64,000 nucleotides of DNA, taken from assembly GCA_964502145.1 (NCBI GenBank), contig CAZCVI010000002.1, positions 117,383 to 181,382 of the forward strand, in the 5' to 3' direction. The position numbers and the translations under genes are program-made. Shown piece after piece: positions 5,832 through 22,633 of this stretch (its first letter is position 1; every line of letters starts with the position of its first letter). This stretch comes from an uncultured Clostridia bacterium. Lineage in GTDB: Bacteria > Acidobacteriota > Aminicenantia > UBA2199. Under the pieces are notes generated by a model that was given only the letters and a program-made list of their open reading frames with translations, was not told the origin of the DNA and ran no database searches.

Positions 5832-7337
5832 TTAATACCGCACCCCTTTTTGGTATAACATCGCTTCGTAAGCAGCCATCACTTCGGCCCACTGGTCAAT
5901 AGGTATTTGGTGGGTAAATGGATTTCTTATCTCGAATACACCGGCTTCTCCCTCTTCTTTGTTAACATGAAGCAAGCTGGAGTCTGTATTTTTTAAAATA
6001 GCTTCTGCTTGCGTCTCTTGAGTCTTACGATTTTTAATCAATATCTTCTCTCCCCTTAAAACCGCGAGTGTATCATTTAAGGCACTTATTTTCAGAAAAT
6101 TGGCATGGAAAATATTCGGACCTTGGGTTATCTTATCTTGAAGTTTTGCAATTCTAAAATCTAAATCGAGATTCTTAAGTTGTTCCATCCAACCCTCTGG
6201 TTTCCCATTTATAAGATGATCCATTTTTTCTAATAGACTATATGTTTCTAAGTCCTCTTTATCGCTGGGAATATTCCCTTCTGCCAATTTTGGATAGTCA
6301 GTGGCATCAAATGCTTCTTTTAAAGTTGCTGGGAACAGACCTGCCGTTTTAGGATCAACTGTTGAGTCTTTTAAAGCACTTGTCCACAATTCTTGAATAT
6401 TGGCACGTGGTAATGCGTCGAGTATGTTTTTATCTATTATATCTTTTGTGGGGCTAAAAAAATCTTCCTGAGATCTCAAATACTTAAAGTATGAAACTCT
6501 TGGCACATTCACCAACGCCCTTATGGTTGATTTTAAGATGGATGGAAGTTCGGCTCCTAACTTTTTACTCAATATTTCCACTATATTATTATATAATTGG
6601 ATAGAGAATTGTTTGGCGTTGTCCAGGCAGGTATTGACGGTTTTTTCCTGTACTATTAGAACATGGTCTTCAAATGTAAAGCTATTGATTAAATCGAAAA
6701 TATCGAGGAAGGTTGAAGATGTCGCCTTGGTGGGGGAGACGTTTATTTGAAATGCACCTTGAGAACCTTCTTGGACTTGAAGGATTGGCCCTTGTCTATT
6801 ATTTACTTCAGCCCATTTTGCTTCTAACGCCATTAAGGGCATATCTTTTAAAAGCGATTTCCCTCTGATTTTGGCGATTTTTACAAAATCGGCCAGATAG
6901 GCGACCTGAAATGTGAGGCTCAGGGGATTCTCGGGCGGATATTGATCATGGAGCCCTGTGGCCAGTTCAAAAGTAGCATATTTTTTATTTGGAGCTTCGA
7001 GATGAATTTCTGTCTCTATTCCAGGTACGATAGCCCCTACTTTTTCGCCCTGGGATACACTAGTGCCAACATCATAATCCAATGTAGCCCCAACTACTTC
7101 TATTTCCGCCCCAATTTTTCTTTGTATTGAATTCGTTTGCTTGTTGGATAGATTCCCTTCTGTTGCTTCGGTTTCGCCGTCCAAATTTCCGGATGGCGTC
7201 ATAACCGTTTCTTCACCAAAAATAGGGGGATGGTGATTTGTTTTTTTATTATTTGCACTCTTTATCTGCTGGGCAACGGCTTCAGCAGCCGCCATACTTT
7301 TATTCTCATTCTTTGTCTTCATTGCTGCGGCATACAT
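5832..7337 (-). CDS. Hypothetical protein (501 aa) with a low-complexity N-terminus and no recognisable domain
   Basis: A long ORF with coherent codon usage. I could recognise no motifs by eye. Confidence 0.5.
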   Translation of the reverse strand: MYAAAMKTKNENKSMAAAEAVAQQIKSANNKKTNHHPPIFGEETVMTPSGNLDGETEATEGNLSNKQTNSIQRKIGAEIEVVGATLDYDVGTSVSQGEKVGAIVPGIETEIHLEAPNKKYATFELATGLHDQYPPENPLSLTFQVAYLADFVKIAKIRGKSLLKDMPLMALEAKWAEVNNRQGPILQVQEGSQGAFQINVSPTKATSSTFLDIFDLINSFTFEDHVLIVQEKTVNTCLDNAKQFSIQLYNNIVEILSKKLGAELPSILKSTIRALVNVPRVSYFKYLRSQEDFFSPTKDIIDKNILDALPRANIQELWTSALKDSTVDPKTAGLFPATLKEAFDATDYPKLAEGNIPSDKEDLETYSLLEKMDHLINGKPEGWMEQLKNLDLDFRIAKLQDKITQGPNIFHANFLKISALNDTLAVLRGEKILIKNRKTQETQAEAILKNTDSSLLHVNKEEGEAGVFEIRNPFTHQIPIDQWAEVMAAYEAMLYQKGVRY

Positions 7338-7668: not shown

Positions 7669-7711
7669 TTTTTGATTTGACATTTTGTCGTTTATAAGCT
7701 ACCATTATACT

Positions 7712-8056
7712 ATGGCCAACACACAGAGGATTTTGAAAGTTTATATGGATTCCCGCGGTAAAGAGCCTTTTATTGAGTGGTTGGAATCGATAAAGGACCG
7801 TAAAAACAGAAGTAGGATTATTACTAGATTGGATCGTTTGGAAGTCGGTAATCCCGGTGATTCCCGCCATTTGGGTAATGGGTTGTTTGAACTACGCTTG
7901 GACTTTGGCCCCGGCTTTCGGATTTATTATGGTGAAGATGACGCGGTGATCCTAATTTTGCTGGTGGGTGGCGATAAAGGGACGCAATCCGCAGATATCA
8001 AAAAAGCCCAATCTTATTGGAAGAGGTATCAGGAGGAAAAAAATGAGAAATTTTAG
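7712..8056 (+). CDS. Type II toxin, RelE/HigB-like addiction-module killer protein (TIGR02683-like)
   Basis: MANTQRILKVYMDSRGKEPFIEWLESIKDRKNRSRIITRLDRLEVGNPGDSRHLGNGLFELRLDFGPGFRIYYGEDD is the characteristic killer-protein pattern. Its stop overlaps the antitoxin start. The upstream ATG at 7685 is less likely. Confidence 0.75.
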   Translation: MANTQRILKVYMDSRGKEPFIEWLESIKDRKNRSRIITRLDRLEVGNPGDSRHLGNGLFELRLDFGPGFRIYYGEDDAVILILLVGGDKGTQSADIKKAQSYWKRYQEEKNEKF

Positions 8057-8369
8057 AGATTATCTAAAAGATAAATTGGTCGATCAAGCAGAAGCAGTTT
8101 CTTATCTAAATGTCGCCCTGGAAGAGTATGAAAAAGATCACGATGCCGATGCTTTTTTGCTGGCACTACGTACAGTTACCGAGGCAAATGGCGGTATCTC
8201 TGAATTGGCAAAAAAAACCAATCTAAACAGGCAACACCTGTATCGGTCATTATCAAACAAAGGAAATCCCAGACTGATTACACTGGAAACAGTTTTGCAT
8301 GGACTGGGACTCCGGTTGTCTATTGTCCCTCTTGGAAACAAAAGTCTGGAGACGGAGCACAGAGTATAA
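8043..8369 (+). CDS. HTH (XRE-like) antitoxin / addiction-module antidote protein (TIGR02684-like)
   Basis: MRNFRDYLKDKLVDQAEAVSYLNVALEE...ISELAKKTNLNRQHLYRSLSNKGNPRLITLETVLHGLGLRLSIVP is the typical antidote HTH. It is translationally coupled to the toxin, with ATG at 8043 inside the toxin 3' end. Confidence 0.7.
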   Translation: MRNFRDYLKDKLVDQAEAVSYLNVALEEYEKDHDADAFLLALRTVTEANGGISELAKKTNLNRQHLYRSLSNKGNPRLITLETVLHGLGLRLSIVPLGNKSLETEHRV

Positions 8370-8407
8370 ATTTCCTGGCTGTTTCTTCCATCAAGTAGGG
8401 GCTTGAG

Positions 8408-8459
8408 CTGTCTCCCCCATTTTTCCAAGTAGAAAAACTGTGGCCAGTGCTTTACTTCT
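8408..8459. repeat. Right copy of the 52-bp direct repeat
   Basis: ctgtctcccccatttttccaagtagaaaaactgtgGccagtgctttacttc. It is followed at 8449-8498 by a perfect 15-bp inverted repeat (tttacttctttactt / aagtaaagaagtaaa). Confidence 0.8.
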
Positions 8460-8652
8460 TTACTTTATATTTGTTCAATTGCAAGAAGTAAAGAAGTAAA
8501 ACACCGTCCCCTTTTTTGGCCAAGGAATCAATAAATGGCAAATTAAAAGTGCTTCAGCGGGAACCGTATCACCTTTTTTGATCACGTTTTGGCCTTACCA
8601 ATGACATAAATTTTCATACCACCTTTCCTTTATCAAAACAGTCACGTTCACA

Positions 8653-8997
8653 CTATAATGAGAGTACTTTCTTTATGCCCTGTTCGACTTTTTTAAGATA
8701 TTTGGTACCAATTTTCCCGACGAATTCTGTCAATACCTCTTTATCAATGGTAATCAATTGGGAAACGTTTATGACTGAATCCTTTGTTAACGCGGACTCT
8801 TCTTTCTTTAAAAAAACGTTCCCAGGAGCTTCGGCCAATCTAAGATTGCTGGTTATAACCACCACCACAACTGTATTGATTTTACTCCTGTTAAAGGTAT
8901 CGGCCTGCATGACCAGCACAGGTCGTCTGTACCCGGGACCTGAACCTGAGGGTAAATCCAAATCAGCCCACCAAATGGACCCCCGCTCAATTACCAT
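8653..8997 (-). CDS. mazF: MazF/PemK-family type II toxin (endoribonuclease)
   Basis: RGSIWWADLDLPSGSGPGYRRPVLVMQADTFN...VVVVVITSN is the MazF/Kid/PemK signature. Confidence 0.75.
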   Translation of the reverse strand: MVIERGSIWWADLDLPSGSGPGYRRPVLVMQADTFNRSKINTVVVVVITSNLRLAEAPGNVFLKKEESALTKDSVINVSQLITIDKEVLTEFVGKIGTKYLKKVEQGIKKVLSL

Positions 8998-9233
8998 TCT
9001 TCTTTTTGCACTATTTTCAACTGTGCCTGATAAAGCCCTTTATCCATTACCGAGGGATTCGTTTGATCTTCATACAATGCATTTAACTGCTGTGTTACAT
9101 TTTCCTCTTTTTTATCCTTCAGATACTCTTCTATTGCCCTCGCATAAAATTCACTGCGAGTTACCTTTAATTGGTGGGCGATTTTCTCGGCCAATGCAAA
9201 TATATTATCCGGTATGTATACTGCTGTTTTCAT
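8991..9233 (-). CDS. Ribbon-helix-helix antitoxin (MazE/CopG-like)
   Basis: An 80-aa protein, MKTAVYIPDNIFALAEKIAHQLKVTRSEFYARAIEEYL, is RHH-like. It overlaps the MazF start by 7 nt and sits upstream in the same operon. Confidence 0.65.
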   Translation of the reverse strand: MKTAVYIPDNIFALAEKIAHQLKVTRSEFYARAIEEYLKDKKEENVTQQLNALYEDQTNPSVMDKGLYQAQLKIVQKEEW

Positions 9234-9449
9234 GCTTAAAGTATAATCCCAATAGAGGCGAATGTCAAATAAAAAACTTCCCCACGTACCGATGGAAATT
9301 AAGAGGTTAGTTGCGCCAAACTAAGCCCAGGAATTTGGGACATGTCAGTGATTCTCATTATTCTCGTTATTCTTTTTCCTCCCATTCTTCGCATTTTGTC
9401 CTAGGGATTTCCAAACTTTTGGTGGTTGTTCCAGGTGAAACTACAAAAC

Positions 9450-9485
9450 TTGCAGATAAAAGTTGCGTATATTATAGTGCTGATT
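9450..9485 (+). promoter_or_regulatory. Candidate sigma70-like promoter for the flotillin gene
   Basis: TTGCAG-N17-TATAGT. A second possible extended -10, TAGTATAAT, lies near 9494-9502. A GGAGG RBS is present before ATG 9537. Confidence 0.35.
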
Positions 9486-9536
9486 CTAATGCCTAGTATA
9501 ATATATACTTTTAAAAACGAAATGGAGGTTATAAAT

Positions 9537-11594
9537 ATGGAACTATCTTTTATGATTGCAGGTGGTGTGGGAGTTTTTGTTTTTCTCCTGGTGATTGCAT
9601 CCTTCACTAATATTGGCCCGACCCAGGTGGGGTTAGTGATGAAACGGTTCTCTTTAAAAAAGCTTCCTGGAGATAACCCAATCGCGTTTAATGGGGAAGC
9701 GGGATATCAAGCCAAATTGCTAATGCCAGGGTTGCGTTGGAAGTTTATATTGTTATATCAAGTACGAAAATTCCCCTGGGTGCAAGTACCAGCGGGGGAA
9801 ATCGGCGTGATGATATCCCAGATCGGGGCTGCACTCCCTATCGGTGCCAAATCGGCGTTTTATAAAAACGAGTTCGGGAACTTCTCCGACTTAAAGAATT
9901 TTATCTCCCAAGGCGGCCAAAAAGGTGTGCAACGCCCCGTGCTACCTCCGGGAACATTAATTCCTTTTCATCCGGTGGCGTTCCTGGTAATTACCGCTAA
10001 ACAGGTGTATGGCGTACCAGTAGACCCAGAACTGGTCAGATTGGAAGCCAGAACGGGGCGCTTAATGCCCCAATCTTTTGGTCTTGAACCAGACCAATTA
10101 AAACTGGTGATGATCCAACCGGCACCGCATGGCGAAGGCAGTGAATTGATTGATATGGTGGGTATTGTCACTACCTTGGAAGGAGACCCATTGCCTTCTG
10201 GTGCCATTGCCAGCCGCTTGAATGATTTTTACGATATCCAGGAACTGGAAGACGCAGGCAAAGATGATTCCGCCTTAATCGAAGTCCTGCTGGGTAGTAA
10301 AAATGGCTTGCATAACAATTACCAGGATTATCAGGCTTTCTTGGAAAACGGCGGACGCATCGGATTGCAACATGACCCGTTGTTGTATGGTGCATACGCA
10401 TTGAATCCGTTCCTGGTTCGGGTGGAACGTATGCCCATGCTGGTGGTGAAACAGGGTGAAGTGGCTGTTATTAAAGGGTATGTGGGCTTGCCCACCAAGG
10501 ATACTTCGGGTGATAAGTTCAAGTATGGGTCCCTGGTACGACCTGGCCACCGCGGCATCTGGCAAGAACCGTTACGAACAGGTAAATTCGCTATCAATCC
10601 TCGCTGTTACCAACCCGTGATTGTATCCACGGCTATCCTAACATTGAATTGGGCAGAAGCAGTTTCGCGGGCCCATAACTTGGACCGGCAATTATGTCAA
10701 ATTGAAGCTAAAAGTAATGAAGGATTTGTCTTTAGAATTGATCTGCAAGTGCAGATACATGTGGCCGATACCCATACACCACGGGTGATTTCCATGGTAG
10801 GAACAATGGAAAATCTGGTCAACGAAGTATTGCAAGCAGCAGTAGGAAACCACTTCCGCGATAAATTACAAAGTATGCCCGCGGTTGATTTTATTAAGAA
10901 GAGACAGGAAGTTCAAGAACAAGCGCTTATCCATGTCCGGGATCATCTGGCTTTATATCAGGTGGAAACCCGTGGGGTTTATATTCAAGATGTGGTGTTA
11001 CCCAAAGAGTTGGTCAAGGTGTTAACAGAGCGAGAAATCGCCAATCAGAACATCGAAACCTTCAAAAAAGAAAAAGAAGCAGAAGATCAACGCATCGCCA
11101 AACAGCAGGCCATGGGTACGGCAGACATGCAGTTGGCATTAGCCAAGTCGCAGGTGGAAGTGGAAATCAACACCAACCGGGCCAAAGCCCGCAAAGCAGA
11201 AGCGGATGGTGAAGCCACATACATCGAGAAAACGGGTGCGGCGCATGGTGCCAAAATACGTGCGGTAGGGTTGGCTCGTGCCGAAGGTTACGAGGCACAG
11301 GTCAAAGCGTTGGGGCAAATTCCCACGGCATTAGTTAATGCGATTAATGCTCTGTCTGAAGGCAATATGAAGATCATACCCGATGTTTTAGTCACTGGCG
11401 GTTCAGGTTCTCTGGAAGGTTTGGCTGCGACCCTAATAAAAAAATTCACCCCTAAAGCAGAATATCCCGTGGAAGAGAAGCAAAAAAGCGAAGAAATAAT
11501 GGCCAGAACAGCCGATAGGGCTGAAGATAAAGCCATGGAAGATATCGCTTGGTCAGTAAGACCAGAATTCCCAGAGGAAGTACCCACCGTATAA
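9537..11594 (+). CDS. Flotillin-like SPFH/band-7 domain membrane protein
   Basis: Start at MELSFMIAGGVGVFVFLLVIASF, an N-terminal TM helix. The GGAGG RBS sits 7-11 nt upstream. An SPFH core is followed by a long Ala/Glu/Lys-rich coiled coil (KEKEAEDQRIAKQQAMGTADMQLALAKSQVEVEINTNRAKARKAEADGEA), typical of YqiK/flotillin. The ORF-track start at 9426 lacks an RBS. Confidence 0.65.
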   Translation: MELSFMIAGGVGVFVFLLVIASFTNIGPTQVGLVMKRFSLKKLPGDNPIAFNGEAGYQAKLLMPGLRWKFILLYQVRKFPWVQVPAGEIGVMISQIGAALPIGAKSAFYKNEFGNFSDLKNFISQGGQKGVQRPVLPPGTLIPFHPVAFLVITAKQVYGVPVDPELVRLEARTGRLMPQSFGLEPDQLKLVMIQPAPHGEGSELIDMVGIVTTLEGDPLPSGAIASRLNDFYDIQELEDAGKDDSALIEVLLGSKNGLHNNYQDYQAFLENGGRIGLQHDPLLYGAYALNPFLVRVERMPMLVVKQGEVAVIKGYVGLPTKDTSGDKFKYGSLVRPGHRGIWQEPLRTGKFAINPRCYQPVIVSTAILTLNWAEAVSRAHNLDRQLCQIEAKSNEGFVFRIDLQVQIHVADTHTPRVISMVGTMENLVNEVLQAAVGNHFRDKLQSMPAVDFIKKRQEVQEQALIHVRDHLALYQVETRGVYIQDVVLPKELVKVLTEREIANQNIETFKKEKEAEDQRIAKQQAMGTADMQLALAKSQVEVEINTNRAKARKAEADGEATYIEKTGAAHGAKIRAVGLARAEGYEAQVKALGQIPTALVNAINALSEGNMKIIPDVLVTGGSGSLEGLAATLIKKFTPKAEYPVEEKQKSEEIMARTADRAEDKAMEDIAWSVRPEFPEEVPTV

Positions 11595-11924
11595 GTAAAA
11601 ATGGTTCAGAGTAAAGGGGCGGTCTTTTGATAAGGTCGCCCCTGTACCTGCACAGATTCCCCGCAGTTGGAGTCTGTTCCGTTTGCGTCATTTTTTCTTA
11701 CCGCCTAAGATTCACCATCGTATATCTATCGGCATACCTTTTTTTAAGAATCTAATCGTGGATTTAGGAAAAAAGTCAATGCCGTCGCGTGAAAAACAGA
11801 AGAAATTAACCCGTTGAAATAACAGGTGGAAATACATGTAATTCAGGTTTGTTTATTGGCATGATCTAAGGCAAAACAAGAAAACAATGCCTGAAAATCT
11901 AGAATAAATATTCATAAAATTTGC

Positions 11925-11960
11925 TTGACTGTTTTTTTTTGCTATGCTACTATTATTTTT
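11925..11960 (+). promoter_or_regulatory. Candidate promoter of the RiPP-like operon
   Basis: TTGACT-N18 (containing T10)-TACTAT in the AT-rich intergenic region, about 120 bp upstream of the first ORF. Confidence 0.3.
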
Positions 11961-12004
11961 AACCTCTTAAACAAAAACCTAGGTAAAATAAATTGGGTGA
12001 AATA

Positions 12005-12082
12005 ATGCAAGTTAAAAAAAGAGTTGTCAGGCAATGGGAAAACTTTTTCCAGACGACAATTTTCTCGGGTATGTGTAAATGA
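12005..12082 (+). CDS. 25-aa small ORF (MQVKKRVVRQWENFFQTTIFSGMCK) overlapping the rSAM start (ATGA). Possible small precursor/leader-like peptide or an upstream coupling ORF.
   Basis: A GGTGA lies 6 nt upstream of the ATG. Its stop TGA overlaps the ATG of the 12079 gene. Cys is at the C-terminus. Confidence 0.25.
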   Translation: MQVKKRVVRQWENFFQTTIFSGMCK

Positions 12083-13923
12083 TCGAAGCCAACGAAGTCA
12101 AAAAGCACCTCCTTTCCGTTTTAAAAGGTGAGTCGCTCCTGCTGATTGTTCCACCTTTTGTTAATACGCGGACTCCCATCATGGGTCCTCATATCCTGCA
12201 AACCATTGCCCAACAGCAGGGTTATGCAGTAGATATTCTATATGTGAATCTTCTGCTGGCCTCACTCATTGGTACCCAGTTGGTCGAAAGCATCAGCTAC
12301 GGTCAACCTTTTCGTTTATTAGGCGAGCGTTTATTTGCCCGTAGCGCCTATGGATTACCACCATTGGGAAAATTTCCAGAACTCTGTTTGGACGCGGTGA
12401 AATCGGTGTTCGGCGATAAAGAAGAATATCCCATGGAAGCCTTTGAATACAAGTATTATGAGACAACCGATTTCCAAGCCGATACGTACCACCACCTGGA
12501 AAATATCTGCTATGATCTGGTAACAGAGATATCAGAAACCATTGCGGGTATGAATTATCAGATGGTGGGTTGTTCGAGTAACTGGGAACAAAACAATTGC
12601 TCCATCGCCTTGATCAATGCGATCAAAAAACGTCGACCCGACATTATTACCTTGATGGGCGGCTCCAACTGCGAGGGGGAAATGGCAGAAGGAATTGCTT
12701 CACTCAGCCACTCTATTGATTATATCTTTTCCGGGGAGAGCGATCTTACCTTCCCTGACTTCTTAAAAAAACATAAAGCTGGCCAATTACCCTCGAACCG
12801 GATTATCGTGGGCGAACCGGTTACTGACCTGGATAATATCCCGCTCCCCTGTTATGATAGTTATTTCCAACAATCGCGTTGTTTTTTCGGCGCTCAGCCC
12901 AGCGGAGAAAATATCCTGGCCTATGAAACCAGCCGCGGTTGCTGGTGGGGACAATGTACCTTTTGCGGGCAAAATGGCAAACGGAGCCGTTTTCGCCCCA
13001 AAGCTGCCAAGAAAGTCGCTGCTGAATTGGGTGAAATGAATCGCCAGTACCCGGATAAACGCATTCTGCTCATAGATAAAGTGATGCCCATCTCTATCTA
13101 CAACGAACTGCTCCCCTTGTTAGAGCAAAACGGAGTGACAGCACCCATGAGCTGTGAACACCGGCCAGACCTATCCTTTCAAGAACTGCTGGACTTAAAA
13201 AAAGCCAATGTGAATATCATCAAGTTCGGTATTGAAACGCTGTCCAGCGGATTATTAAAACTAATGAATAAAGGCGTGATTGCCGCGCAGAATATTTCTC
13301 TACTTCGCCATGCTGCGGCCTGCGGCGTGCTAATCGATTGGAATATGCTGTGGGGGTTCCCCAATGACAGGTTAGAACACTACCAGGAGATATTGGAACT
13401 GCTGCCTTTACTCCATCATCTCTGTCCCCCTGCGGTATTTCGTCACCTTAGTTTGGATCGCTTTTCTCCTTATTTCGAGAAGCCCCAGAAATATAATATC
13501 CGTAACCTCCGTCCCTGGGCGGTGAACGATATGGTTTACCCGGAGTGGGCAGATATGGAGAAACTAGCTTACCGCTTCATCGGCGATTATCCCAGTGACT
13601 CTCACGACCACCCAGAAATAATCGGCGCCATCTCCCGAGAAGTGGAAAACTGGCAAGCTTCCAGAAAAGATGCCAAGTTGCATCTGAAGGCTGTCGGTTA
13701 TCATTATATTCTCCAAGATACCCGGAAAATAAAAGCGGGCTGCAAACCCCAATTACTGGATGAAGAACAAGCCAGGGCCGTGATGACACCATCCGCCTAC
13801 AAGACTTCAAGCGGACAAGAATGGGCGGTGACTGAAAAACTGGGGGTAGTGGTGGATGGTTTGTACGTTCCCCTGGTGACCGCTTCCCCAGAATTATTAT
13901 TACACTTTATGGAGGAATCATGA
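12079..13923 (+). CDS. B12-binding-domain / radical SAM protein (class-B-like) with a non-canonical CX4CX2C cluster motif
   Basis: The N-terminal LLLIVPPFVNTRTPIMGPHILQTIAQQQGYAVDILYVNL ... IITLMGGSNCEGEMAEGIASL...IFSGESD reads as a B12-binding fold (GGxxxxxGE(G)E). The core SRGCWWGQCTFCGQNG is followed by TIM-barrel-like elements. Confidence 0.5.
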   Translation: MIEANEVKKHLLSVLKGESLLLIVPPFVNTRTPIMGPHILQTIAQQQGYAVDILYVNLLLASLIGTQLVESISYGQPFRLLGERLFARSAYGLPPLGKFPELCLDAVKSVFGDKEEYPMEAFEYKYYETTDFQADTYHHLENICYDLVTEISETIAGMNYQMVGCSSNWEQNNCSIALINAIKKRRPDIITLMGGSNCEGEMAEGIASLSHSIDYIFSGESDLTFPDFLKKHKAGQLPSNRIIVGEPVTDLDNIPLPCYDSYFQQSRCFFGAQPSGENILAYETSRGCWWGQCTFCGQNGKRSRFRPKAAKKVAAELGEMNRQYPDKRILLIDKVMPISIYNELLPLLEQNGVTAPMSCEHRPDLSFQELLDLKKANVNIIKFGIETLSSGLLKLMNKGVIAAQNISLLRHAAACGVLIDWNMLWGFPNDRLEHYQEILELLPLLHHLCPPAVFRHLSLDRFSPYFEKPQKYNIRNLRPWAVNDMVYPEWADMEKLAYRFIGDYPSDSHDHPEIIGAISREVENWQASRKDAKLHLKAVGYHYILQDTRKIKAGCKPQLLDEEQARAVMTPSAYKTSSGQEWAVTEKLGVVVDGLYVPLVTASPELLLHFMEES

Positions 13924-13950
13924 CTCCTCTAAAGAGCTGAAAAAACTACC

Positions 13951-16215
13951 ATGTTAGAAAATCCTATACTGAAACCCTGTTACGGTGCCGAATGTATCGA
14001 CACCGATCACGTCTTGTTAATATCGGAAAAAGACAATGTCTTATTAACCGGGAAACTTTACAACCTGGTACTGTCTGAAATTTGTGGCAGCACGCTTTCG
14101 TTGGCTGAAGTGGTGGACCGATTGCGTGGAAAACTTTCTGAAATGGAAATCTATTTAGCGCTGGAATCTCTGGAAAAGAAAGGGTACATCACTGAAGCTG
14201 CACCAGCACTACCACCAGAAACCTCTGCTTATTGGAGCAGCCAGGGGATGGAGATCAATCGGTTTCTCACGGTTTTGCAGGAAAAGACCATTACCCTTAC
14301 ATCTGTTGGTTCCCTTGCAACCGAATTATTTAGTCAGGCATTCGCTTTAACTGGCCTTAAATGCAGTGAAACCGGGGCGTTGCATGTTTATATTACCGAT
14401 GATTACCAGCGCCATCAGTTTGCCACCATCAATCAGGACGCTCTAAAAACCGGGCAGCCCTGGATGCTGGTTAAACCGGTGGGTGTGGAACTGTGGGTGG
14501 GGCCGATTTTCCTGCCAGGACAAACGGGTTGTTGGGAATGCTTGAAACAGCGCTTGGATATGAACCGTCCTGTAGATGCGTTTTACAAGACCCAGAAAAA
14601 CACCCGTCATCACCTATCTCTTCCCGCTGCTTTTTCCCCGCTTTCCTGGCAAATTGCCGCCAATATGACCGCGCTGGAGATAACCAAATGGCTTTATGCC
14701 GGGCATAATGAGCGGTTGGACGGCAAACTTATTTCTTTTGATACAGCGACCATGAACACCCAATCCCATGTACTGGTCAAACGCCCCCAATGCTCCTCCT
14801 GCGGCGAACCCGGTTATTTACGCGCAGAATCCCTTCCCATTATTCCGGTGCGACGATCGTCTTGCAGTGTGACCGCATTGGGTGGCTACCGCGAAGTAGA
14901 CCCCGAAGCTACTATTGAAAAATACCAGCATCACGTTAGCCCTATTACCGGAGTGATGCCGAAACTGGAACCGTATTACCATGTCAAAGGCACACCATTA
15001 TATAACTACTCTTCGGGTCGCAATATTGCACTGCGCAGTAAATCGTTATTCTGGTTGAACCAGCATCTCCGTAGCGGCAATGGCGGCAAAGGAAAAAATT
15101 GGACCCAGGCCAAAGTCGGGGCATTGTGCGAGGCGGTGGAACGGTATTGTTTCACCTATCACGGTGACGAACCCCATATCACCACCAGTTTAAAGAATTT
15201 AGATGGCAAGGGCATCCATCCCAATACCTGCATGAATTTTAGTGACACCCAATACCAGAATAGGGTAGAGAGTAACCGGAACTGCGGTAAATTTTATTCC
15301 ATGGTGCCTATTCCCTTTGATTCTGCCCGCGAAATGGATTGGACCGCCGTGTATTCGTTGACCCACCAGATGTTCAAGTATCTGCCCTCCTGTTTTTGTT
15401 ATGCCCAATATCCGGCTGAAGATGAATTAAATCTTTTTTCCTATCCAGACAGTAATGGGTGTGCCGCTGGGAATTCCATTGAAGAAGCCATATTACAGGG
15501 TTTTCTCGAACTCGTTGAACGAGATGCTGTGGCATTATGGTGGTACAATATGCCCCGCCGAACCGCCGTGGACCTCTCTAGTTTTAACGAACCTTATTTT
15601 TTACAATTAATAGACTATTATCAGTCATTACAACGAAGTCTTTATGTATTGGATTTAACCTCTGATTTAAACATTCCCACCTTTGGCGCTGTGTCTCATC
15701 AGCTAGATGGTGGCACACAGGATATTATTTTCGGCTTTGGTTCCCACGTGGACGCCCGGATCGCATTGGAAAGAGCACTGGTAGAATTAAACCAACTTTT
15801 ACCCATCGTTGATGGTCCCGAAGTTGATAGAGCCAAAGGGAAATATTTGACCCAGGATAATAACTTTCTCCATTGGTTAAAAACCGCGACCATGGAAAAT
15901 CAACCCTATTTAGCGCCCCAGCAAGACATCGCTCCCAAAACCGCAACGGATTACCCCCAGTTATGTGAACCCACCATCTATGATAGTCTGATGTTCTGTG
16001 TAAATACAGCAGCTCAACACGGCTTGGAAACATTGGTACTTGATTTGACCCGCCCCGACATCGGGCTTAGCGTCGTCAAGATCGTTGTGCCTGGTTTAAG
16101 GCATTTCTGGCAACGTTTGGCACCTGGACGATTGTATGATGTCCCCGTTCAGATTGGCTGGCTGGCTACCCCCCTCCATGAAGCCCAGTTAAATCCCATG
16201 CCTTTATTTATATAA
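13951..16215 (+). CDS. Fused E1-like (ThiF/MoeB-like) + YcaO cyclodehydratase (RiPP azoline/amidine-forming enzyme, PatD/TruD-like)
   Basis: The N-terminal half has CxxC...CxxC (GCWECLKQR ... PQCSSCGEPG), a typical E1-like Zn tetrathiolate. The YcaO signature is GNGGKGKNWTQAKVGALCEAVERYC (ExxER). Size (754 aa) and the two-domain order match cyanobactin/TOMM heterocyclases. Confidence 0.7.
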   Translation: MLENPILKPCYGAECIDTDHVLLISEKDNVLLTGKLYNLVLSEICGSTLSLAEVVDRLRGKLSEMEIYLALESLEKKGYITEAAPALPPETSAYWSSQGMEINRFLTVLQEKTITLTSVGSLATELFSQAFALTGLKCSETGALHVYITDDYQRHQFATINQDALKTGQPWMLVKPVGVELWVGPIFLPGQTGCWECLKQRLDMNRPVDAFYKTQKNTRHHLSLPAAFSPLSWQIAANMTALEITKWLYAGHNERLDGKLISFDTATMNTQSHVLVKRPQCSSCGEPGYLRAESLPIIPVRRSSCSVTALGGYREVDPEATIEKYQHHVSPITGVMPKLEPYYHVKGTPLYNYSSGRNIALRSKSLFWLNQHLRSGNGGKGKNWTQAKVGALCEAVERYCFTYHGDEPHITTSLKNLDGKGIHPNTCMNFSDTQYQNRVESNRNCGKFYSMVPIPFDSAREMDWTAVYSLTHQMFKYLPSCFCYAQYPAEDELNLFSYPDSNGCAAGNSIEEAILQGFLELVERDAVALWWYNMPRRTAVDLSSFNEPYFLQLIDYYQSLQRSLYVLDLTSDLNIPTFGAVSHQLDGGTQDIIFGFGSHVDARIALERALVELNQLLPIVDGPEVDRAKGKYLTQDNNFLHWLKTATMENQPYLAPQQDIAPKTATDYPQLCEPTIYDSLMFCVNTAAQHGLETLVLDLTRPDIGLSVVKIVVPGLRHFWQRLAPGRLYDVPVQIGWLATPLHEAQLNPMPLFI

Positions 16216-16322
16216 ATAAGGATCGTAGATCATGTTGTGTACTATTTTCAACGTATTATCCAATAACTTTGGCGTAACACATAAGAAAAATAAAATATAA
16301 ACCAAACAAAGGAGATTTAGCC

Positions 16323-16820
16323 ATGAAAGAGAAAAATTTTACGATTACCGAAAACACGAAACCGCAGGATGTAAAAAAAATCAGGGACATTTATACCAAT
16401 TACCTGAGAGTCATGCTCAAGTGTGCTGAAGACCAAGCTTATTTTGTAGAATTTCAGAAGAACACCCGTGATATCCTGGTCAATGAAGTAGGGATGACCA
16501 TCCCGGAAGGAGTCCCAATTGTTCTTGATGACAATGTAAGATGGGCATCACTGGTCTTAAATGCAAAAGGTGCCGATGGTAGCAATTATGTGGTAAAAGA
16601 AATGGAACTGGGTATCAAAGCCTATGAAACTTGGGCTGATGGAGAACTTGAAGCGTCTATTACCCAACTTACCCATGAAGCCTGCGTTGAAGTTGATATT
16701 AAAGCCGAATTCAAGAATTTTACACCAGCAATTCGTATCCCATTTATTGATGTAACCAAGGATTTACTGGGTGAAATTAGCTTTAATAAGAAGACTGAAA
16801 TCGTTTTAACTTGTTGCTAG
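16323..16820 (+). CDS. NHLP-type (nitrile-hydratase-leader-like) RiPP precursor, 165 aa, C-terminus ...EIVLTCC
   Basis: An AGGAGA RBS is present. ...YFVEFQKNTRDILVNEVGMTIPEGVPIVLDDNVRWASLVLN matches the NHLP consensus (...F...L..NP...L.eE.G..lPeGV.v.V.EEn.....LVLP). A Cys-Cys terminal dipeptide is present. Confidence 0.6.
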   Translation: MKEKNFTITENTKPQDVKKIRDIYTNYLRVMLKCAEDQAYFVEFQKNTRDILVNEVGMTIPEGVPIVLDDNVRWASLVLNAKGADGSNYVVKEMELGIKAYETWADGELEASITQLTHEACVEVDIKAEFKNFTPAIRIPFIDVTKDLLGEISFNKKTEIVLTCC

Positions 16821-16834
16821 CCGTTGTTGATTTA

Positions 16835-16870
16835 GTGGGCTTCCCGGTTTTTTTTTATCAGGAAGCCCAC
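16835..16870 (+). terminator. Terminator-like hairpin after the precursor gene
   Basis: gtgggcttcc ... ggaagcccac is a perfect 10-bp stem. The T9 tract is inside the loop rather than after the stem. Confidence 0.45.
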
Positions 16871-16970
16871 TGCGGACTCTGTAAAAAGAAGACTTTTATT
16901 AAACGTGGCTCTTGTTTGGGCATTGACTGATCTTAATTAATAATTTATACTTTAGTATACTTTTTATATT

Positions 16971-17020
16971 ATACTTATTTTCGTGTACTTATTTTCGTGT
17001 ACTTATTTTGTTGTATTTAT
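16971..17020. repeat. Degenerate 13-14-bp tandem repeat (tacttattttcgtg x ~4) upstream of the kinase gene
   Basis: tacttattttcgtg tacttattttcgtg tacttattttgttg tatttattagtg, read directly from the sequence. Confidence 0.6.
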
Positions 17021-17060
17021 TAGTGTATTTTTCTGTAGAAGAACTTTTACGAGGTGAAAT

Positions 17061-20000
17061 ATGAAAATTGCAGATTATTTTGTACTGGAGACGCTGTCAC
17101 ACGGACCAAGAGTTACCGTTTATAAAGCAAAAAAAGAAAACAATACTACCTCTGTTGTCTTAAAGGTCACCGAAAAAAAAACAGCCGAGAAACTTGATAT
17201 TGTTCGCTCCCTGGAACATGAATACCAATACATCAAGCAGGTGGATTCCGACTTTGTGATCAAAGGGATTCACTGGCAAGAGGAAAAAGAGGTTGCTTTT
17301 ATCGTATTGGAAGATATTGATGCTCAATCACTTAAACACTTCATCAAGGAGAAACAGCTCTCTATCCCACAGTTTTTGGACCTCGCCAAAAAGATTGTCG
17401 ATGGACTGGCAGCCATACACAGACAAAACATCATTCATAAAGATATCAATCCATCCAATATCATATGGAATCCAGAAACCGGTGGCCTAAAGATAATCGA
17501 TTTTAATATCGCCTCTAAATTCGATTTAAAATTGTCCTACCTGGGCAACCCGGAAAAACTTAAAGGCACCCTCGCTTATATCTCCCCGGAACAAACCGGT
17601 CGCATGAATCGGCGGGTGGACCAACGAACCGATCTCTATTCCCTGGGTGTCACTTTTTATGAAATGCTGACAGGCAAACTGCCCTTCGACTCAAACCAAC
17701 CCATGGAAATCGTTTATGCCCACTTGGCCAAAGAACCCCAATCCCCGCACCTACTAAATGAAGCTATCCCGGAAATTATTTCCCGGATCATCCACAAATT
17801 AATGGCCAAAAACCCAGAAGATCGCTATCAATCCGCTGAAGGCTTAAAATATGATCTGGAAAAATGTGCTCTATCACACCCGCAAACCTTTGCCCTGGGC
17901 GAAAATGATTACTCTGGCAAACTCCAAATCCCGGAAAAACTTTATGGACGTGAAGAAGAATTAGAACAACTTTTAGCAGTGTACCATCGTGTCAGTCAAG
18001 GCAACAAAGAAATGATCCTGGTGTCCGGATTCTCCGGTTCTGGGAAAACCACTTTGGTGAATGAAATTCATAAATCTATTGCCAAGGACCGGGGCTATTA
18101 TATCAGTGGAAAATTTGATCAGCTTCAACGCACGATTCCCTATTTTGCTTTTATCCAGGCACTTAACCAGTTCTGCCAGTTACTGCTGACTGAAAAACAG
18201 GAAGTGTTGAACCTATGGAAAGTAACTATCTTAAATGCCGTTGGCAAACTGGGGAGAATTCTGACCGATATTATCCCCCAATTGGAAGCTGTGATCGGGA
18301 ACCAACCGGAAGTTCCCGAAGTCAACGGTGACGATGCCAAAAAACGGTTTAATTATGTGTTTTTATGTTTTTTAAATGCCGTGGCCACTGTGGAGCATCC
18401 CCTGGTCATGTTTATCGATGATCTACAGTGGGCCGATCTGGCCTCCTTGAGCTTGCTGCAATTGATCATGGAAGACCGGAAAAGTTGCTATATATTCTTG
18501 ATAGGCGCTTACCGGGATAATGAAGTATCCCTCTCCCATCCCTTGATAACCACTCTGGCGGAATTAAAAAAACAAGCTATCCCCATCCATACTATTCCCG
18601 TTAAAAATCTCTCCCGGCAAAATGTGTCGGCGTTGCTAGTGGATACGTTTAAGACCCCAAGGAACAAAAACCAGGAGGAATTGGACGCATTGACCACTTT
18701 GATCTATCAAAAAACACAGGGTAATGCTTTTTTTACCCTTCAATTTATTGAAAACCTTTTTAAGGAAAACCTATTGTCGTTTGATTTTAAGAAATCCAGG
18801 TGGATATGGGATATCAAAAATATCGAAAAACAGAACATTACCGACAACGTGGTGGCATTACTGGTCAAAAAAATTAAAACATTGCCGGAAAAGACCCAGG
18901 AAGTTTTAAAACTGGCCGCCGCTATTGGCAATACCTTTGAATCGCCAACCTTGTCCGTTATTTCCGGGGCAACGGAAGCAGCCCATCGCCAAGCTTTGGA
19001 ACCCTCGTTGGCGGAACATCTGGTCTATCCCATAGATATAGGTATTTACAAATTTGTTCATGACCGTATTCACCAGGCTATCTACTCCATGGTACCCGAT
19101 GAAGACAAAAAACATTTGCATCTCAAAATCGGCAGATTACTGCTGGAAACATTTGACCTCCAGGATACATCAACACTTTCAAAAGAGACGGATCAGCGAA
19201 TTTTTGATACTGTTAACCATTTGAATATCGGAATTGACCTGATCATTGATGAACGGGAAAGAATTCATTTGGCCACACTGAACCTTAAAGCCGCTAAACA
19301 TGCCCGGGTAGCTGCCGCTTTTTCTATCGGTGTCGTGTATGTACGGACTGCCATACGTTTATTACCAGACAATAGCTGGCAGCAGCATTACGATCTGACT
19401 CTGTCCGTGTACAACGAGGCTGTGCTCGCCTCCTACTTATTCTTAAACCTAGCGGAGATGGAAAAATATGTTGAAATCATATTGTCCTCCACGCAAAATA
19501 TTTTACATCGCTCGGTGGCGTATGAATACCGCCTTTTGAGTTTAATCGGACAGAATAAATCCCAACAGGCCGTTGAAGCAATCTTAACCATTTTTAACCT
19601 TCTGGGAGTGACTATTCCCCCCGAACCCAGTGGTCCAGAAACAATGGCCATATTTGGAGAAGTTCAAACCATGTTAACCAGTATGAATCAGGAGACGATT
19701 GCCAATCTTCCCCTGATGACAGACGAAGCGAAATTGCAAGTGTTACGCCTTTTTTATATGGCTGGCCTTTCCTTTATGCATGGCCGTCCAACGGCATGGC
19801 CCTATGTGATCAGTAAAATGATCCATCTTATACTCACTTATGGCTTGACAGCGGAAACTCCCTATGTGATATCTCTTTATGGTGTGATCAAGGTTGTTAT
19901 GGGTGATTTTCCCAGTGCCTACCAATTGGGAGAAATGGCAGGGGAATTATTGGCCCGGGGTATCGGTAATCAAGCCATCCAGGTCAGAACCATCGGCATT

Positions 20001-22337
20001 ATCTGTTTTTATCTGCGGGGGTATAGAACCCATTTTAAAAAAATAGCCAAGGAGATGATGGATACCTACTCCCTGTGCATGGAAGTGGGTGATTTTGAAT
20101 ATGCGGGATATTCATTGGGCAATTACCTCTGGTGCCTCAATCGTACAGATACCCCGTTGGAAGAGGCATATCAGAAAGCATTGAATTGCCGGGAAACAGT
20201 CCTACAATTAAAACAACCCCTTCCGATACCACCCATATTCATTGAAATTACCATTTGCGAGAATTATCTCGGCAAAGCGGTTGATCCGGCTGTTTTGGCT
20301 ATCAACTATGATGAACTTTTTAAAAACCTACCGATTGGTTCTACTGGAATATTTAGTTGTGGGGCCAATATAAAACAAGCGATATTATTCTTCTTTTTTG
20401 AGCGGTACGATAACGTTTTGGAGTTAATGGTTTCAACTGAAAACCAATATAATGCCTTGAATATGCCGCTTACCTATTTTAGAAGCGATATCCACTTTTA
20501 TTTTACCCTGATCTATATTGAACTTTATACACGCAGTGAATCGGAAAGTGAAAAAGAAATCTGTATTACTAAGATAAACGAGAATAGAACTATTATGAAA
20601 CAGTTGGCTGAATTCGGCCCGGTAAATTTTCTGCATAAGTATTACTTGTTGGAAGCTGAATATGGCAGGGTTACCGGTAACAATAATCAAGCGCCAGAGT
20701 TCTATGACAAAGCCATAGAAACGGCTTATGAAAACGAATATATCAACGAGGCGGCCCTAGCCAACGAACTGGCCGCAAAATATTATATCCGGGAAAACCG
20801 CCGCAAATTCGCCACCTTCTACTTCATGGAAGCACGAAACTGTTATGTCCGGTGGGGCGCACTGGCAAAAGTCAAGCATTTGGATGACAACTATCCCAAA
20901 TACTTGAGTCTTGGACTCCCCGATTCTTCCTTGAGCCGCTCCTCCCTCTCCAGTACTTCAACCGGAACCGCTGGCGATTTCCTGGATGTCAAGAGTATCA
21001 TCAAAGCGTCGCAAACCCTGTCTGGTGAAGTTCAGTTAAAAAGCTTGTTGGAAAAATTAATGCAGATATTGATTGAGAATGCCGGGGCCCAAAAAAGTAT
21101 CTTGATCGAAAATAATGGCGGACGCTTGCTCATTCAAGCAGAAGGTAATACCAATGGTGTATCCGGTATTTTGCATGAGCTGCCAGTGGACGAGTCGGAT
21201 AAAATACCATTGTCCATCATCCATTATGTGGCCCACAGTAAACGGCAATTGGTTTTTGATAACCTATCTACAGACCCCAATTATACGACCGACGAATATA
21301 TCCAAAAAAATCAGCCCAAATCCGTGGTGTGTTTTCCCATCTTAAGTAAGGGGGAAGTTTCTGCCATTGTTTATTTGGAAAACAATCTGGTGGAAGGTGT
21401 ATTTACTCCAGCCCGGTTGGAAGTGCTCAATATGCTTTCGTCGCAAATCGCCATTTCAGTGGAAAATACCCATCTGTATGAGACGCTTGAAGAAAAAGTA
21501 AGGCAGCGTACTATTGCATTGCAAAAAGCACATCAAGAACTGGAGAAGAATCATAAAGAACTGGCGGAAAGTCATAGGAAAATCAATGACAGCGTGAACT
21601 ATGCCAGCAAGATACAAGAGGCGGTTTTACCCGGCGAGGAAATCCTCAACACCCTTCTTCCCCAACACTTTGTCTTCTATCGGCCCTGCTCGGTGGTCAG
21701 CGGTGATTTTTATTGGATCAAACCGGTGGGACAAAAAATAGTGGTGGCTACTGCCGACTGTACTGGCCACGGGATTCCCGGTGCCTTGCTAAGTATGCTG
21801 GGCATGACCTTTCTGAGCGAAATCGTGCCCCACCTGGCCGAACAAAACCAACTGAGCGCGGCCAATGTACTGGACCAATTACGCCAAAAAGTCAAAATCT
21901 CCTTGAAACAAGAAGGAAAGGTTCGTCAACAAAGAGATGGGATGGATATTGCGCTGTGCATCATCGATCCTGCGGATAAGCAATTGCAATATGCCGGTGC
22001 TTATAATCCGTTTTACTTGATCAAGGATAATCATCTTCTGGAAACAAAAGCAGACACCATGCCCATTGGTTTTTCCACCAAAGAACGCCCCTTTACCAAT
22101 CATGATGTCAGGTTTGAAAACGGGAGTATGGTTTACCTTTTCTCCGATGGGTACGCCGATCAAAACGGTGAGGATGGCGAGGTGAATTTTAGCAGGGTGA
22201 AATTTAAGAAATTGTTGACGGAAATCAGCAGGGAACCGGTAGCCAAACAAAAAGAAGTGTTAATCCAACGCTTCGAGCAATGGCGGGGTGACCTGCCACA
22301 ACGTGACGATGTCCTGGTCCTGGGAATAAGACTATAA
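17061..22337 (+). CDS. Multidomain signalling protein: N-terminal Ser/Thr-kinase-like domain (degenerate motifs), P-loop (STAND/AAA-like) NTPase, helical/TPR-like region, GAF domain, C-terminal PP2C/SpoIIE phosphatase
   Basis: Kinase-like: VVLKV, HKDINPSNI (vs HRDLKPEN), IIDFNIASKF (DFN vs DFG) and YISPEQ. P-loop: VSGFSGSGKTTLVNE. PP2C: FYRPCSVVSGDFYWI...ATADCTGHGIPGALLSML...DGMDIALCII...LFSDGYADQ. The RBS is GAGGTG. Confidence 0.65.
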   Translation: MKIADYFVLETLSHGPRVTVYKAKKENNTTSVVLKVTEKKTAEKLDIVRSLEHEYQYIKQVDSDFVIKGIHWQEEKEVAFIVLEDIDAQSLKHFIKEKQLSIPQFLDLAKKIVDGLAAIHRQNIIHKDINPSNIIWNPETGGLKIIDFNIASKFDLKLSYLGNPEKLKGTLAYISPEQTGRMNRRVDQRTDLYSLGVTFYEMLTGKLPFDSNQPMEIVYAHLAKEPQSPHLLNEAIPEIISRIIHKLMAKNPEDRYQSAEGLKYDLEKCALSHPQTFALGENDYSGKLQIPEKLYGREEELEQLLAVYHRVSQGNKEMILVSGFSGSGKTTLVNEIHKSIAKDRGYYISGKFDQLQRTIPYFAFIQALNQFCQLLLTEKQEVLNLWKVTILNAVGKLGRILTDIIPQLEAVIGNQPEVPEVNGDDAKKRFNYVFLCFLNAVATVEHPLVMFIDDLQWADLASLSLLQLIMEDRKSCYIFLIGAYRDNEVSLSHPLITTLAELKKQAIPIHTIPVKNLSRQNVSALLVDTFKTPRNKNQEELDALTTLIYQKTQGNAFFTLQFIENLFKENLLSFDFKKSRWIWDIKNIEKQNITDNVVALLVKKIKTLPEKTQEVLKLAAAIGNTFESPTLSVISGATEAAHRQALEPSLAEHLVYPIDIGIYKFVHDRIHQAIYSMVPDEDKKHLHLKIGRLLLETFDLQDTSTLSKETDQRIFDTVNHLNIGIDLIIDERERIHLATLNLKAAKHARVAAAFSIGVVYVRTAIRLLPDNSWQQHYDLTLSVYNEAVLASYLFLNLAEMEKYVEIILSSTQNILHRSVAYEYRLLSLIGQNKSQQAVEAILTIFNLLGVTIPPEPSGPETMAIFGEVQTMLTSMNQETIANLPLMTDEAKLQVLRLFYMAGLSFMHGRPTAWPYVISKMIHLILTYGLTAETPYVISLYGVIKVVMGDFPSAYQLGEMAGELLARGIGNQAIQVRTIGIICFYLRGYRTHFKKIAKEMMDTYSLCMEVGDFEYAGYSLGNYLWCLNRTDTPLEEAYQKALNCRETVLQLKQPLPIPPIFIEITICENYLGKAVDPAVLAINYDELFKNLPIGSTGIFSCGANIKQAILFFFFERYDNVLELMVSTENQYNALNMPLTYFRSDIHFYFTLIYIELYTRSESESEKEICITKINENRTIMKQLAEFGPVNFLHKYYLLEAEYGRVTGNNNQAPEFYDKAIETAYENEYINEAALANELAAKYYIRENRRKFATFYFMEARNCYVRWGALAKVKHLDDNYPKYLSLGLPDSSLSRSSLSSTSTGTAGDFLDVKSIIKASQTLSGEVQLKSLLEKLMQILIENAGAQKSILIENNGGRLLIQAEGNTNGVSGILHELPVDESDKIPLSIIHYVAHSKRQLVFDNLSTDPNYTTDEYIQKNQPKSVVCFPILSKGEVSAIVYLENNLVEGVFTPARLEVLNMLSSQIAISVENTHLYETLEEKVRQRTIALQKAHQELEKNHKELAESHRKINDSVNYASKIQEAVLPGEEILNTLLPQHFVFYRPCSVVSGDFYWIKPVGQKIVVATADCTGHGIPGALLSMLGMTFLSEIVPHLAEQNQLSAANVLDQLRQKVKISLKQEGKVRQQRDGMDIALCIIDPADKQLQYAGAYNPFYLIKDNHLLETKADTMPIGFSTKERPFTNHDVRFENGSMVYLFSDGYADQNGEDGEVNFSRVKFKKLLTEISREPVAKQKEVLIQRFEQWRGDLPQRDDVLVLGIRL

Positions 22338-22381: not shown

Positions 22382-22633
22382 TTATTTAATTTTTTTCCTT
22401 TCCGCATTGTTTTTTAATGCATTGGCAATAATCCATTCTTGCTTTTGTTGATTGGCATCTTCAATGGTTCGGTACTTAAAAACTCCGTGAGGAAAATTCG
22501 GAGGACAAAGACGATTGGCTAAATCCCAGAGTTTAACTACCTGTTTATAGTATTCTTCGTCGGGGTCAAAGCACCAGAGGGCTCTTTCAGCCTCTTGAAA
22601 ATCTTTAAACTTTTGAATTGCCATTTGGGTCAT
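22382..22633 (-). CDS. Small hypothetical protein (83 aa), co-operonic with a nucleotidyltransferase
   Basis: Overlaps the upstream gene end by 29 nt. No recognised motif. Confidence 0.4.
   Translation of the reverse strand: MTQMAIQKFKDFQEAERALWCFDPDEEYYKQVVKLWDLANRLCPPNFPHGVFKYRTIEDANQQKQEWIIANALKNNAERKKIK

Follow-up and report, generated by a model that had tools for sequence, protein, structure and literature searches.

What does a gene for a radical S-adenosylmethionine (rSAM) methyltransferase do beside a gene for a YcaO heterocyclase, when a gene for a giant protein kinase follows on the same strand? The question is raised by a gene cluster in a 64,000-nucleotide stretch of contig CAZCVI010000002.1 (assembly GCA_964502145.1, positions 117,383 to 181,382 of the forward strand) from an uncultured Clostridia bacterium; the whole stretch is called the window here. 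An earlier note on this DNA had read the cluster as a compact operon for a peptide made by the ribosome and altered post-translationally (RiPP), closed by a hairpin behind a 165-residue precursor gene. In our analysis the cluster does not look like a compact antibiotic operon but like an uncharacterised module for protein modification and signalling. Comparison with related loci indicates that the module has a conserved fourth gene, the one for a 1758-residue kinase beyond the hairpin, and the boundary drawn at the hairpin was therefore misplaced. We see about an even chance that the four genes together place azolines and C-methyl groups in the tail of a protein that is retained and works with the kinase. 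This reading leans on the following features.

12079-13923, + strand: B12-binding rSAM C-methyltransferase of the TIGR03975 family, 614 residues, assigned by profile matches and carrying CWWGQCTFC
13951-16215, + strand: 754-residue cyclodehydratase of LynD/TruD/MusD type, with a winged helix (putatively leader-binding), an E1-like domain and a YcaO domain
16323-16820, + strand: predicted substrate protein of 165 residues, helical and NHLP-like at the N-terminus, followed by a beta-rich domain, with PF(I/F)D...EIVL-TCC conserved at the C-terminus
16809-16817, + strand: codons Thr163-Cys164-Cys165, the predicted three-residue core and cyclodehydration target
17061-22337, + strand: Ser/Thr kinase of 1758 residues with AAA_16 (STAND ATPase), GAF and PP2C (SpoIIE/SiaA-like) domains, from a domain scan

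The two enzymes and the kinase gene

The open reading frames (ORFs) named in the earlier note were all found where it had placed them, and its assignment of the two enzymes was borne out. Both family matches are far above chance, with E 1e-130 for the rSAM protein and 2e-91 for the YcaO protein. The fusion protein scored 307 bits with PF02624 (YcaO; cutoff 25.7), 272 bits with TIGR03604 (cutoff 219) and 158.7 bits with TIGR03882, the NCBIfam model for the fused cyclodehydratase (cutoff 36.9), and its N-terminal winged helix matched PF21084 at 39 bits. Thus, it has the two marks of a thiazole/oxazole-modified microcin (TOMM) enzyme, a YcaO score above the curated threshold and an E1-like/leader-binding domain. 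The solved heterocyclases LynD, MusD and TruD aligned with it end to end at 617-641 bits (for LynD, 4v1t, 641 bits across residues 7-752). In 39 homologues no variation was seen in the ALCEAVERY motif, in the catalytic Glu residues or in the four Zn cysteines C194, C197, C281 and C284 (CxxC...CxxC). Homology supports an ATP-dependent, azoline-forming heterocyclase, since ATP-dependent azoline formation is expected from the LynD-like three-domain architecture and the full-length similarity.

As the earlier note had remarked, no dehydrogenase lies nearby: a SagB/McbC-type flavin mononucleotide-dependent dehydrogenase was found neither among the genes called about 10 kb to either side nor in the related loci. 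Azolines would therefore be expected rather than azoles. The same note had offered a thiazoline, an amidine or a thioamide as the product. Azoline formation remains the expected outcome, whereas amidine or thioamide chemistry appears less likely because of the fused LynD architecture and because no TfuA partner was present in the Pfam listing of neighbouring genes. TfuA is linked to thioamide formation.

The rSAM protein matched TIGR03975 ('RiPP maturation radical SAM C-methyltransferase') at 437 bits (E 1e-130, cutoff 282) and Radical_SAM at 39 bits, with a sub-threshold B12-binding match of 20.5 bits. These matches support, by homology, a cobalamin-dependent C-methyltransferase. Its Fe-S motif, around residue 290, is atypical. 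Eleven related rSAM proteins all have CWWGxKxKCxFC (CX7CX2C), whereas the window enzyme has CWWGQ---CTFC (CX4CX2C), which is a three-residue deletion in the Fe-S loop. The variant is not an assembly error, because the protein is also encoded, letter-identical, by independent assemblies.

The four components were found together in nine related loci (L005, L006/L007, L008, L010, L012 and L091-L094), namely those that carry rSAM genes of the window type. Each has one to three TIGR03975-like rSAM genes, a YcaO fusion gene, one or two genes for tailed proteins and a gene for a large Ser/Thr kinase with AAA_16 (STAND). In eight of the nine the kinase contains GAF and measures about 1750-2030 residues; in L012 it has 1367 residues and is of the TIGR03903 kinase/cyclase type. 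The flanks, where listed (L008 and L091-L094), are unrelated to one another and to those of the window. Related YcaO genes occurred at 80 genome loci, 48 of which had at least 6 kb on both sides, and in 30 of these 48 a kinase of at least 900 residues was encoded on the same strand within 10 kb. The closest YcaO protein in the genome collection was only 54% identical; homologues at 54-65% identity were present in Desulfobacter vibrioformis, in metagenome-assembled genomes (MAGs) that bear the labels Kapabacteria and Omnitrophota, and in many metagenomes. The named relatives of the sub-family belong to Desulfobacterota, to Bacteroidota and to these two kinds of labelled MAG, besides many metagenomic contigs. 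In the window and in the nine related loci, the genes called near the cluster included no dehydrogenase, protease or transporter. An upstream Band_7/SPFH gene (9426-11594) was considered as a module member and set aside, as it is not conserved in relatives.

The kinases keep their kinase-STAND part and differ in their outputs: PP2C in the window, HATPase, HisKA/response-regulator/HTH or cyclase in relatives. The C-terminus of the window kinase is SiaA-like (208 bits), SiaA being a biofilm phosphatase. Its catalytic loop reads HKDINPSN, and across loci L005-L079 most GAF-type kinases that are co-directional with YcaO likewise have H(K/R)DINPSN, in which Asn replaces the usual Lys. HKDIKPxN occurred in three co-directional kinases (L033, L056 and L057) and in neighbouring kinases on the opposite strand, and HRDLKPxN in TIGR03903-type kinases. 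In L094, genes of the SiaC family (PF09345) stand on both sides of the module (6118-6513 and 19783-20166). Together with the SiaA-like PP2C end of the window kinase, they suggest a partner-switch output.

The 165-residue protein and its tail

The 165-residue ORF has a strong AAGGAG ribosome-binding site and ends in EIVLTCC. In a word-indexed homologue search the protein matched only itself, and the profile of its family found three proteins, one of them named 'hypothetical protein'. When 1.84 billion representatives were scanned exhaustively with HMMER, 44 homologues of 77-249 residues (mostly 156-250 residues) were obtained, matched across most of their length. The protein belongs to a small unannotated family, the alignment of which has a helical N-terminus (I..I..NY..LM..CA.D...R..F..NP..YLN..VGM.IPE), a beta-rich middle part and a C-terminus PFFD...D.L.E.KF.D..E-[IV]-[IV]-[LM], followed by a terminal tail of 2-4 residues, rarely longer. 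The C-terminal pattern E-[IV]-[IV]-[LM]-[ST]-x-x closes the sequence. Its tail almost always opens with Ser or Thr, most often as SCC, TCC, SSC or TSC. Conservation runs through to the three-residue tail, and a long variable core is not present. Even among very divergent relatives, no feature is better conserved than the Ser/Thr/Cys tail that ends the protein.

The earlier note had called this protein a precursor with a nitrile hydratase-like leader peptide (NHLP). A role as substrate is indeed likely, judged by its conserved tail, and a distant relation to the NHLP clan stands; membership of the curated family does not. The NHLP model TIGR03793 gave 18.7 bits (E 1.2e-3) against a cutoff of 50.9; it matched 22 of 28 family members at E < 0.01, the best at 8.8e-8, all below cutoff. 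In a profile search of the PDB the best matches of the family, at E 3e-4 to 1e-2, were alpha subunits of nitrile hydratase (1v29, E 3e-4) together with an NHLP chimera (8tb1, E 0.0095). From the sub-cutoff and weak matches, we take the protein to be a relative within the NHLP clan that stands outside the curated NHLP family. AlphaFold2 predicted a confident fold (predicted local distance difference test 90, predicted TM-score 0.81), for which no match was found among solved structures.

Could the protein be a working subunit instead of a substrate? It is improbable, in our judgement, that it serves as an accessory or chaperone subunit (for example one like nitrile hydratase alpha) while the two enzymes modify the kinase or another protein. 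The predicted fold and the weak similarity to nitrile hydratase alpha (1v29) are in line with such a role, YcaO and B12-rSAM enzymes do modify a protein, methyl-coenzyme M reductase, and some clusters have tail-less paralogues (209 residues in L006; ...HITIME in Burkholderia). However, the Ser/Thr/Cys tail is the most conserved part of the family, the metal motif of nitrile hydratase and a solved-fold match are both lacking, and the heterocyclase has retained its leader-binding winged helix, as enzymes directed at peptides typically do. Identity as a nitrile hydratase subunit was itself rejected: a true alpha subunit would have a CxLCSC metal motif, the alpha-subunit fold and a beta-subunit partner, whereas neither the metal motif nor a fold match was found for the 165-residue protein, and the similarity is weak and local. 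The tail-less paralogues stand beside tailed ones at L006:9034-9663 (209 residues, ...EKEGGEE) and at L089:8126-8470 (Burkholderia, ...HITIME). Such tailed/tail-less pairs hint at a two-protein complex.

We infer from its conservation that the tail of the 165-residue protein is the site of modification, and we propose the following sequence of events. The heterocyclase would dock on the protein through its N-terminal winged-helix domain and, driven by ATP, would turn the C-terminal Thr163-Cys164-Cys165 into a (methyl)oxazoline and thiazolines, which would stay azolines because no dehydrogenase is present. The rSAM enzyme would methylate unactivated carbons, the likely site being the adjacent conserved aliphatic E-I-V-L stretch or else a heterocycle. 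The modified tail would then remain attached to the protein within the cell, where the protein may serve the adjacent kinase as ligand, partner or substrate. Retention is proposed because no protease or exporter is encoded, the conserved core has only three residues and the protein is predicted to fold. The role as input, partner or substrate of the kinase is proposed because the genes are co-inherited across phyla and output domains are swapped behind a constant kinase-STAND part. More specifically, and tentatively, RiPP enzymology may here serve intracellular signalling, the tail being a protein-tethered metal or ligand site of siderophore-like or nitrile hydratase-like kind and the protein the cognate input or substrate of the STAND kinase.

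A conventional secreted RiPP was weighed against this scheme. In that case the 165-residue protein would be a long-leader precursor, a protease and an exporter from elsewhere would release a short bioactive peptide, and the kinase would only regulate. Both enzymes come from RiPP families, the precursor is related to the NHLP clan, a hairpin lies behind the structural gene as in RiPP operons, and the L008 kinase has an HTH output. Furthermore, NHLP leaders are described as long and structured (PMC12537861). However, no protease or transporter was listed in any of the ten loci, a Gly-Gly cleavage motif is absent from the 165-residue sequence, the core consists of three conserved residues and is not hypervariable, and the whole protein is predicted to be folded. 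A folded precursor with a conserved three-residue core is a poor fit to a hypervariable antibiotic precursor. In addition, DNA-binding outputs are the exception among the kinases, which mostly carry PP2C, HATPase or cyclase. We consider a secreted RiPP rather unlikely.

Somewhat less probable still is a small molecule borne on a scaffold in the manner of pyrroloquinoline quinone, mycofactocin or pearlin. The cleaved tripeptide would be a methylated azoline-carboxylate signal or metal chelator, sensed by the GAF/STAND part of the kinase. A tiny conserved C-terminal core on a large conserved scaffold is what such a pathway would show, the GAF domain of the window kinase is a small-molecule-binding fold, and in cyanobacteria an Amidohydro_2 enzyme, encoded between YcaO and kinase in the place of the rSAM enzyme, could release the product. 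However, hydrolases or proteases are not found in the rSAM-type loci, the window included, and TIGR03903-type kinases gave no GAF match in a Pfam scan.

Several points weigh against the modified, retained, kinase-bound protein that we prefer. Every chemical step and its genetics are put forward from homology and gene context. The terminal Cys varies, and the tails SSA, TTA and TTT were also found; a thiazoline can therefore not be a universal feature of the family. In the AlphaFold2 model EIVLT lies in the last beta-strand of the fold; there the tail might be out of the enzymes' reach, and modification may need to precede folding. The only rSAM enzyme of the window could be impaired, given its CX4CX2C motif. 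Between the precursor gene and the kinase gene lie the hairpin and a promoter-like site, which would permit separate transcription, and the kinase might have its own promoter and only regulate the cluster in which it stands. A protease or an exporter could also be encoded elsewhere in the genome.

Comparison with described systems

The earlier note knew of no matching characterised cluster, and none was found. It had, though, overlooked a described analogue. Clusters of YcaO/TOMM genes with a giant Ser/Thr kinase were noted in 2010, among them the NHLP-Burk TOMM system, which has a large Ser/Thr kinase, precursors with a C-terminal Cys or Cys-Cys in tandem pairs and no transporters (Haft, Basu & Mitchell 2010, PMC2887384). 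A survey of 2015 still lists the system bioinformatically only (PMC4603692), and no experimental characterisation was found in the literature searched, which gave only the bioinformatic descriptions of 2010 and 2015. NCBIfam has models for its parts, TIGR03795 ('BMA_0021/BMA_0022 family TOMM bacteriocin') and TIGR03903 ('TOMM system kinase/cyclase fusion protein').

NHLP-Burk is the closest described system. Both clusters have a fused E1-like/YcaO cyclodehydratase, long NHLP-clan precursors with a modifiable terminal Cys or Cys-Cys (...YLFTCC in Burkholderia, ...EIVLTCC in the window) and a giant kinase-plus-STAND protein, and neither has a transporter or protease. In RefSeq, a Burkholderia plasmid carries genes annotated as FHA, TOMM system kinase/cyclase fusion, two BMA_0021/BMA_0022 TOMM bacteriocins and YcaO fusion. 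One of its two precursors ends in ...HITIME and the other in ...SYLFTCC, and tandem pairs with the tail on one member only are shared with L006. The NHLP-Burk cluster grammar thus recurs in the window: the cyclodehydratase is fused, the precursor is long and ends in Cys or Cys-Cys, the Ser/Thr kinase is giant, and a transporter is missing.

However, the window cluster shares this grammar while failing both profile hidden Markov models (HMMs) that define the system. TIGR03795 was absent from the families matched at E <= 0.01 by 28 members of the precursor family, and hhalign aligned the family with the Burkholderia precursor over the NHLP motif only (44% probability, E 2.3e-4). The window kinase scored 136 bits with TIGR03903, against a cutoff of 705.75. 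The kinases from AO1-C (L012, 1051 bits) and Aquimarina (L015, 973 bits) are true members of TIGR03903, and the Burkholderia kinase (L089) reached 1934 bits. The architectures differ, kinase-STAND-GAF-PP2C in the window and kinase-cyclase-STAND in the TIGR03903 type. In addition, the window precursor has an extra beta-rich domain, the window adds a B12-rSAM methyltransferase and has no FHA protein, and its YcaO enzyme is only about 31% identical to that of Burkholderia. L012 bridges both types, as it combines a true TIGR03903 kinase with an rSAM protein and a precursor of the window type.

More distant YcaO relatives share the cluster grammar but have other tailoring enzymes. In cyanobacteria the order is a small NHLP-like protein, the YcaO protein, an Amidohydro_2 enzyme of about 360 residues replacing the rSAM protein, and the giant kinase; the small proteins end in ...YIPLATTC, ...IPVSGS or ...KASCC. 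Amidohydro_2 variants were found at L079, L037, L072, L067, L059 and L090 (cyanobacteria and a Parabeggiatoa MAG), often with a DyP-type peroxidase-like protein upstream. Aquimarina and related Bacteroidota have an FHA protein, the kinase, two to four tandem tailed proteins, the YcaO protein and a weakly matching, 435-residue rSAM-like protein.

The earlier note had placed the cluster near the proteusins, and this identity was not upheld. The window shares with polytheonamide, aeronamide and landornamide an N-terminus of the NHLP clan and an rSAM enzyme of the TIGR03975 family, and at 437 bits against 282 it has the RiPP-type B12-rSAM protein that marks proteusin clusters. However, its precursor falls below the NHLP cutoff, has no Gly-Gly motif and has a core of three residues instead of a long variable one. 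No rSAM epimerase, N-methyltransferase or exporter was seen in the window cluster, and the precursor is predicted to be folded to its C-terminus. With the cyanobactin heterocyclases PatD, LynD, TruD and MusD the window enzyme has in common the three-domain architecture and the full-length match at 617-641 bits. In contrast to cyanobactin clusters, neither PatA/PatG proteases nor a cassette precursor with recognition sequences was seen, no peptidase domain was listed among the neighbouring genes, and there is no macrocyclisation.

The bottromycin pathway uses standalone YcaO proteins, three B12-rSAM C-methyltransferases, an amidohydrolase and a follower-peptide precursor, has no kinase and yields a secreted antibiotic. 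It shares with the module YcaO chemistry and one to three B12-rSAM C-methyltransferases, and an amidohydrolase with the cyanobacterial variants. Bottromycin carries a thiazoline at a Cys near the end of its core, which may be likened to the tail of the module.

In the literature searched, no study of the products of kinase-bearing TOMM clusters, or of the role of the kinase, was found. The cross-phylum sub-family of the window adds to these clusters B12-rSAM methylation, another kinase architecture and a predicted-folded substrate with a three-residue core. If the modified protein is a partner of the kinase, RiPP-type backbone chemistry would be used on a protein for signal transduction, and …EIVL-T/S-x-C would be a minimal conserved substrate at a protein C-terminus for a LynD-type heterocyclase and an rSAM methyltransferase. 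A signalling role would give the 'TOMM system kinase' clusters noted in 2010 their first functional rationale. If the product is an ordinary secreted peptide, the cluster would still represent an undescribed TOMM sub-class, of routine interest.

Flanking elements and the rest of the window

Four smaller elements were noted around the genes.

11925-11953, + strand: TG-extended promoter-like site TTGACT-17-TACTAT, upstream of the rSAM gene, 9/12 match
12005-12082, + strand: 25-residue ORF MQVKKRVVRQWENFFQTTIFSGMCK, with a stop codon that overlaps the start codon of the rSAM gene (ATGA)
16835-16870, + strand: stable hairpin 3' of the precursor gene, -27 kcal/mol, z -4.3
16923-16951, + strand: promoter-like site TTGACT-17-TATACT, upstream of the kinase gene, 10/12 match, the best in the scanned region

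The operon had been described as running from a promoter-like element, by way of a 25-residue ORF as its first gene, to a terminator hairpin. The promoter-like site reaches a 9/12 match and belongs to a class that is not enriched, with 13 sites found where shuffled sequence gave an expectation of 10.8; it is thus of little use as a boundary. The small ORF exists, as claimed, but is probably not a gene. ORFs of at least 20 residues number 163 in 11 kb, so that it stands at chance density, and no counterpart was found upstream of the first rSAM gene in L005, L006, L008, L010 or L012. As a second precursor it was ruled out for lack of such counterparts.

The hairpin was not called by a terminator scan; its T-run sits in the loop, and a U-tail is missing. 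The precursor genes of L005 and L012 are likewise followed by strong hairpins that fold better than almost every shuffle (in L012 between the precursor and YcaO genes), and those of L091 and L092 by long-stem hairpins, for which no shuffle control was made. Stems are present in L006 and L010 as well, but these regions fold no better than shuffled sequence. Because hairpins follow precursor genes in the majority of the relatives examined, we read the one in the window as a feature of the precursor gene and not as a boundary; it is probably an attenuator or an mRNA-stabilising element. RiPP operons typically have a hairpin behind the structural gene. An Rfam scan of 11400-17200 gave no credible match to a riboswitch or other RNA element.

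Genes of toxin-antitoxin type flank the cluster: Gp49/HI1420-like and PemK-like genes at about 7700-9300 and an AbiEii/DUF6036 gene at 22605-23099; none of them is found in the related loci. They raise the matter of an anti-phage or conflict system, in which the STAND kinase would sense infection and the modified protein would be effector or trigger. The toxin-antitoxin and AbiEii-like neighbours would suit a defence system, the kinase domain matches the PD-T4-6 and MAD6 models, and STAND ATPases are common in defence. However, the kinase matches are generic to the kinase domain, PADLOC offers no matching model for the YcaO protein or for the precursor, and no defence genes were seen in the flanks of the related loci. 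A defence role is very improbable, the least probable of the explanations considered here.

Elsewhere in the window, a 6272-residue nonribosomal peptide synthetase (NRPS) is encoded at 38071-56889 (+ strand), the first 3000 residues of which hold Condensation, AMP-binding and PP-binding domains. Radical_SAM (residues 1713-1876, 57 bits) and B12-binding (residues 2056-2166, 40 bits) domains stand in line with them, and such a B12-rSAM unit embedded in an NRPS module seems unusual. The window also encodes a PcRGLX/BACON protein of 1361 residues (1453-5538, - strand) and a Peptidase S46 (32686-34866, - strand; 683 bits), which may hint at a source in the FCB group, and an rSAM-SPASM protein of 462 residues (27814-29202, + strand).

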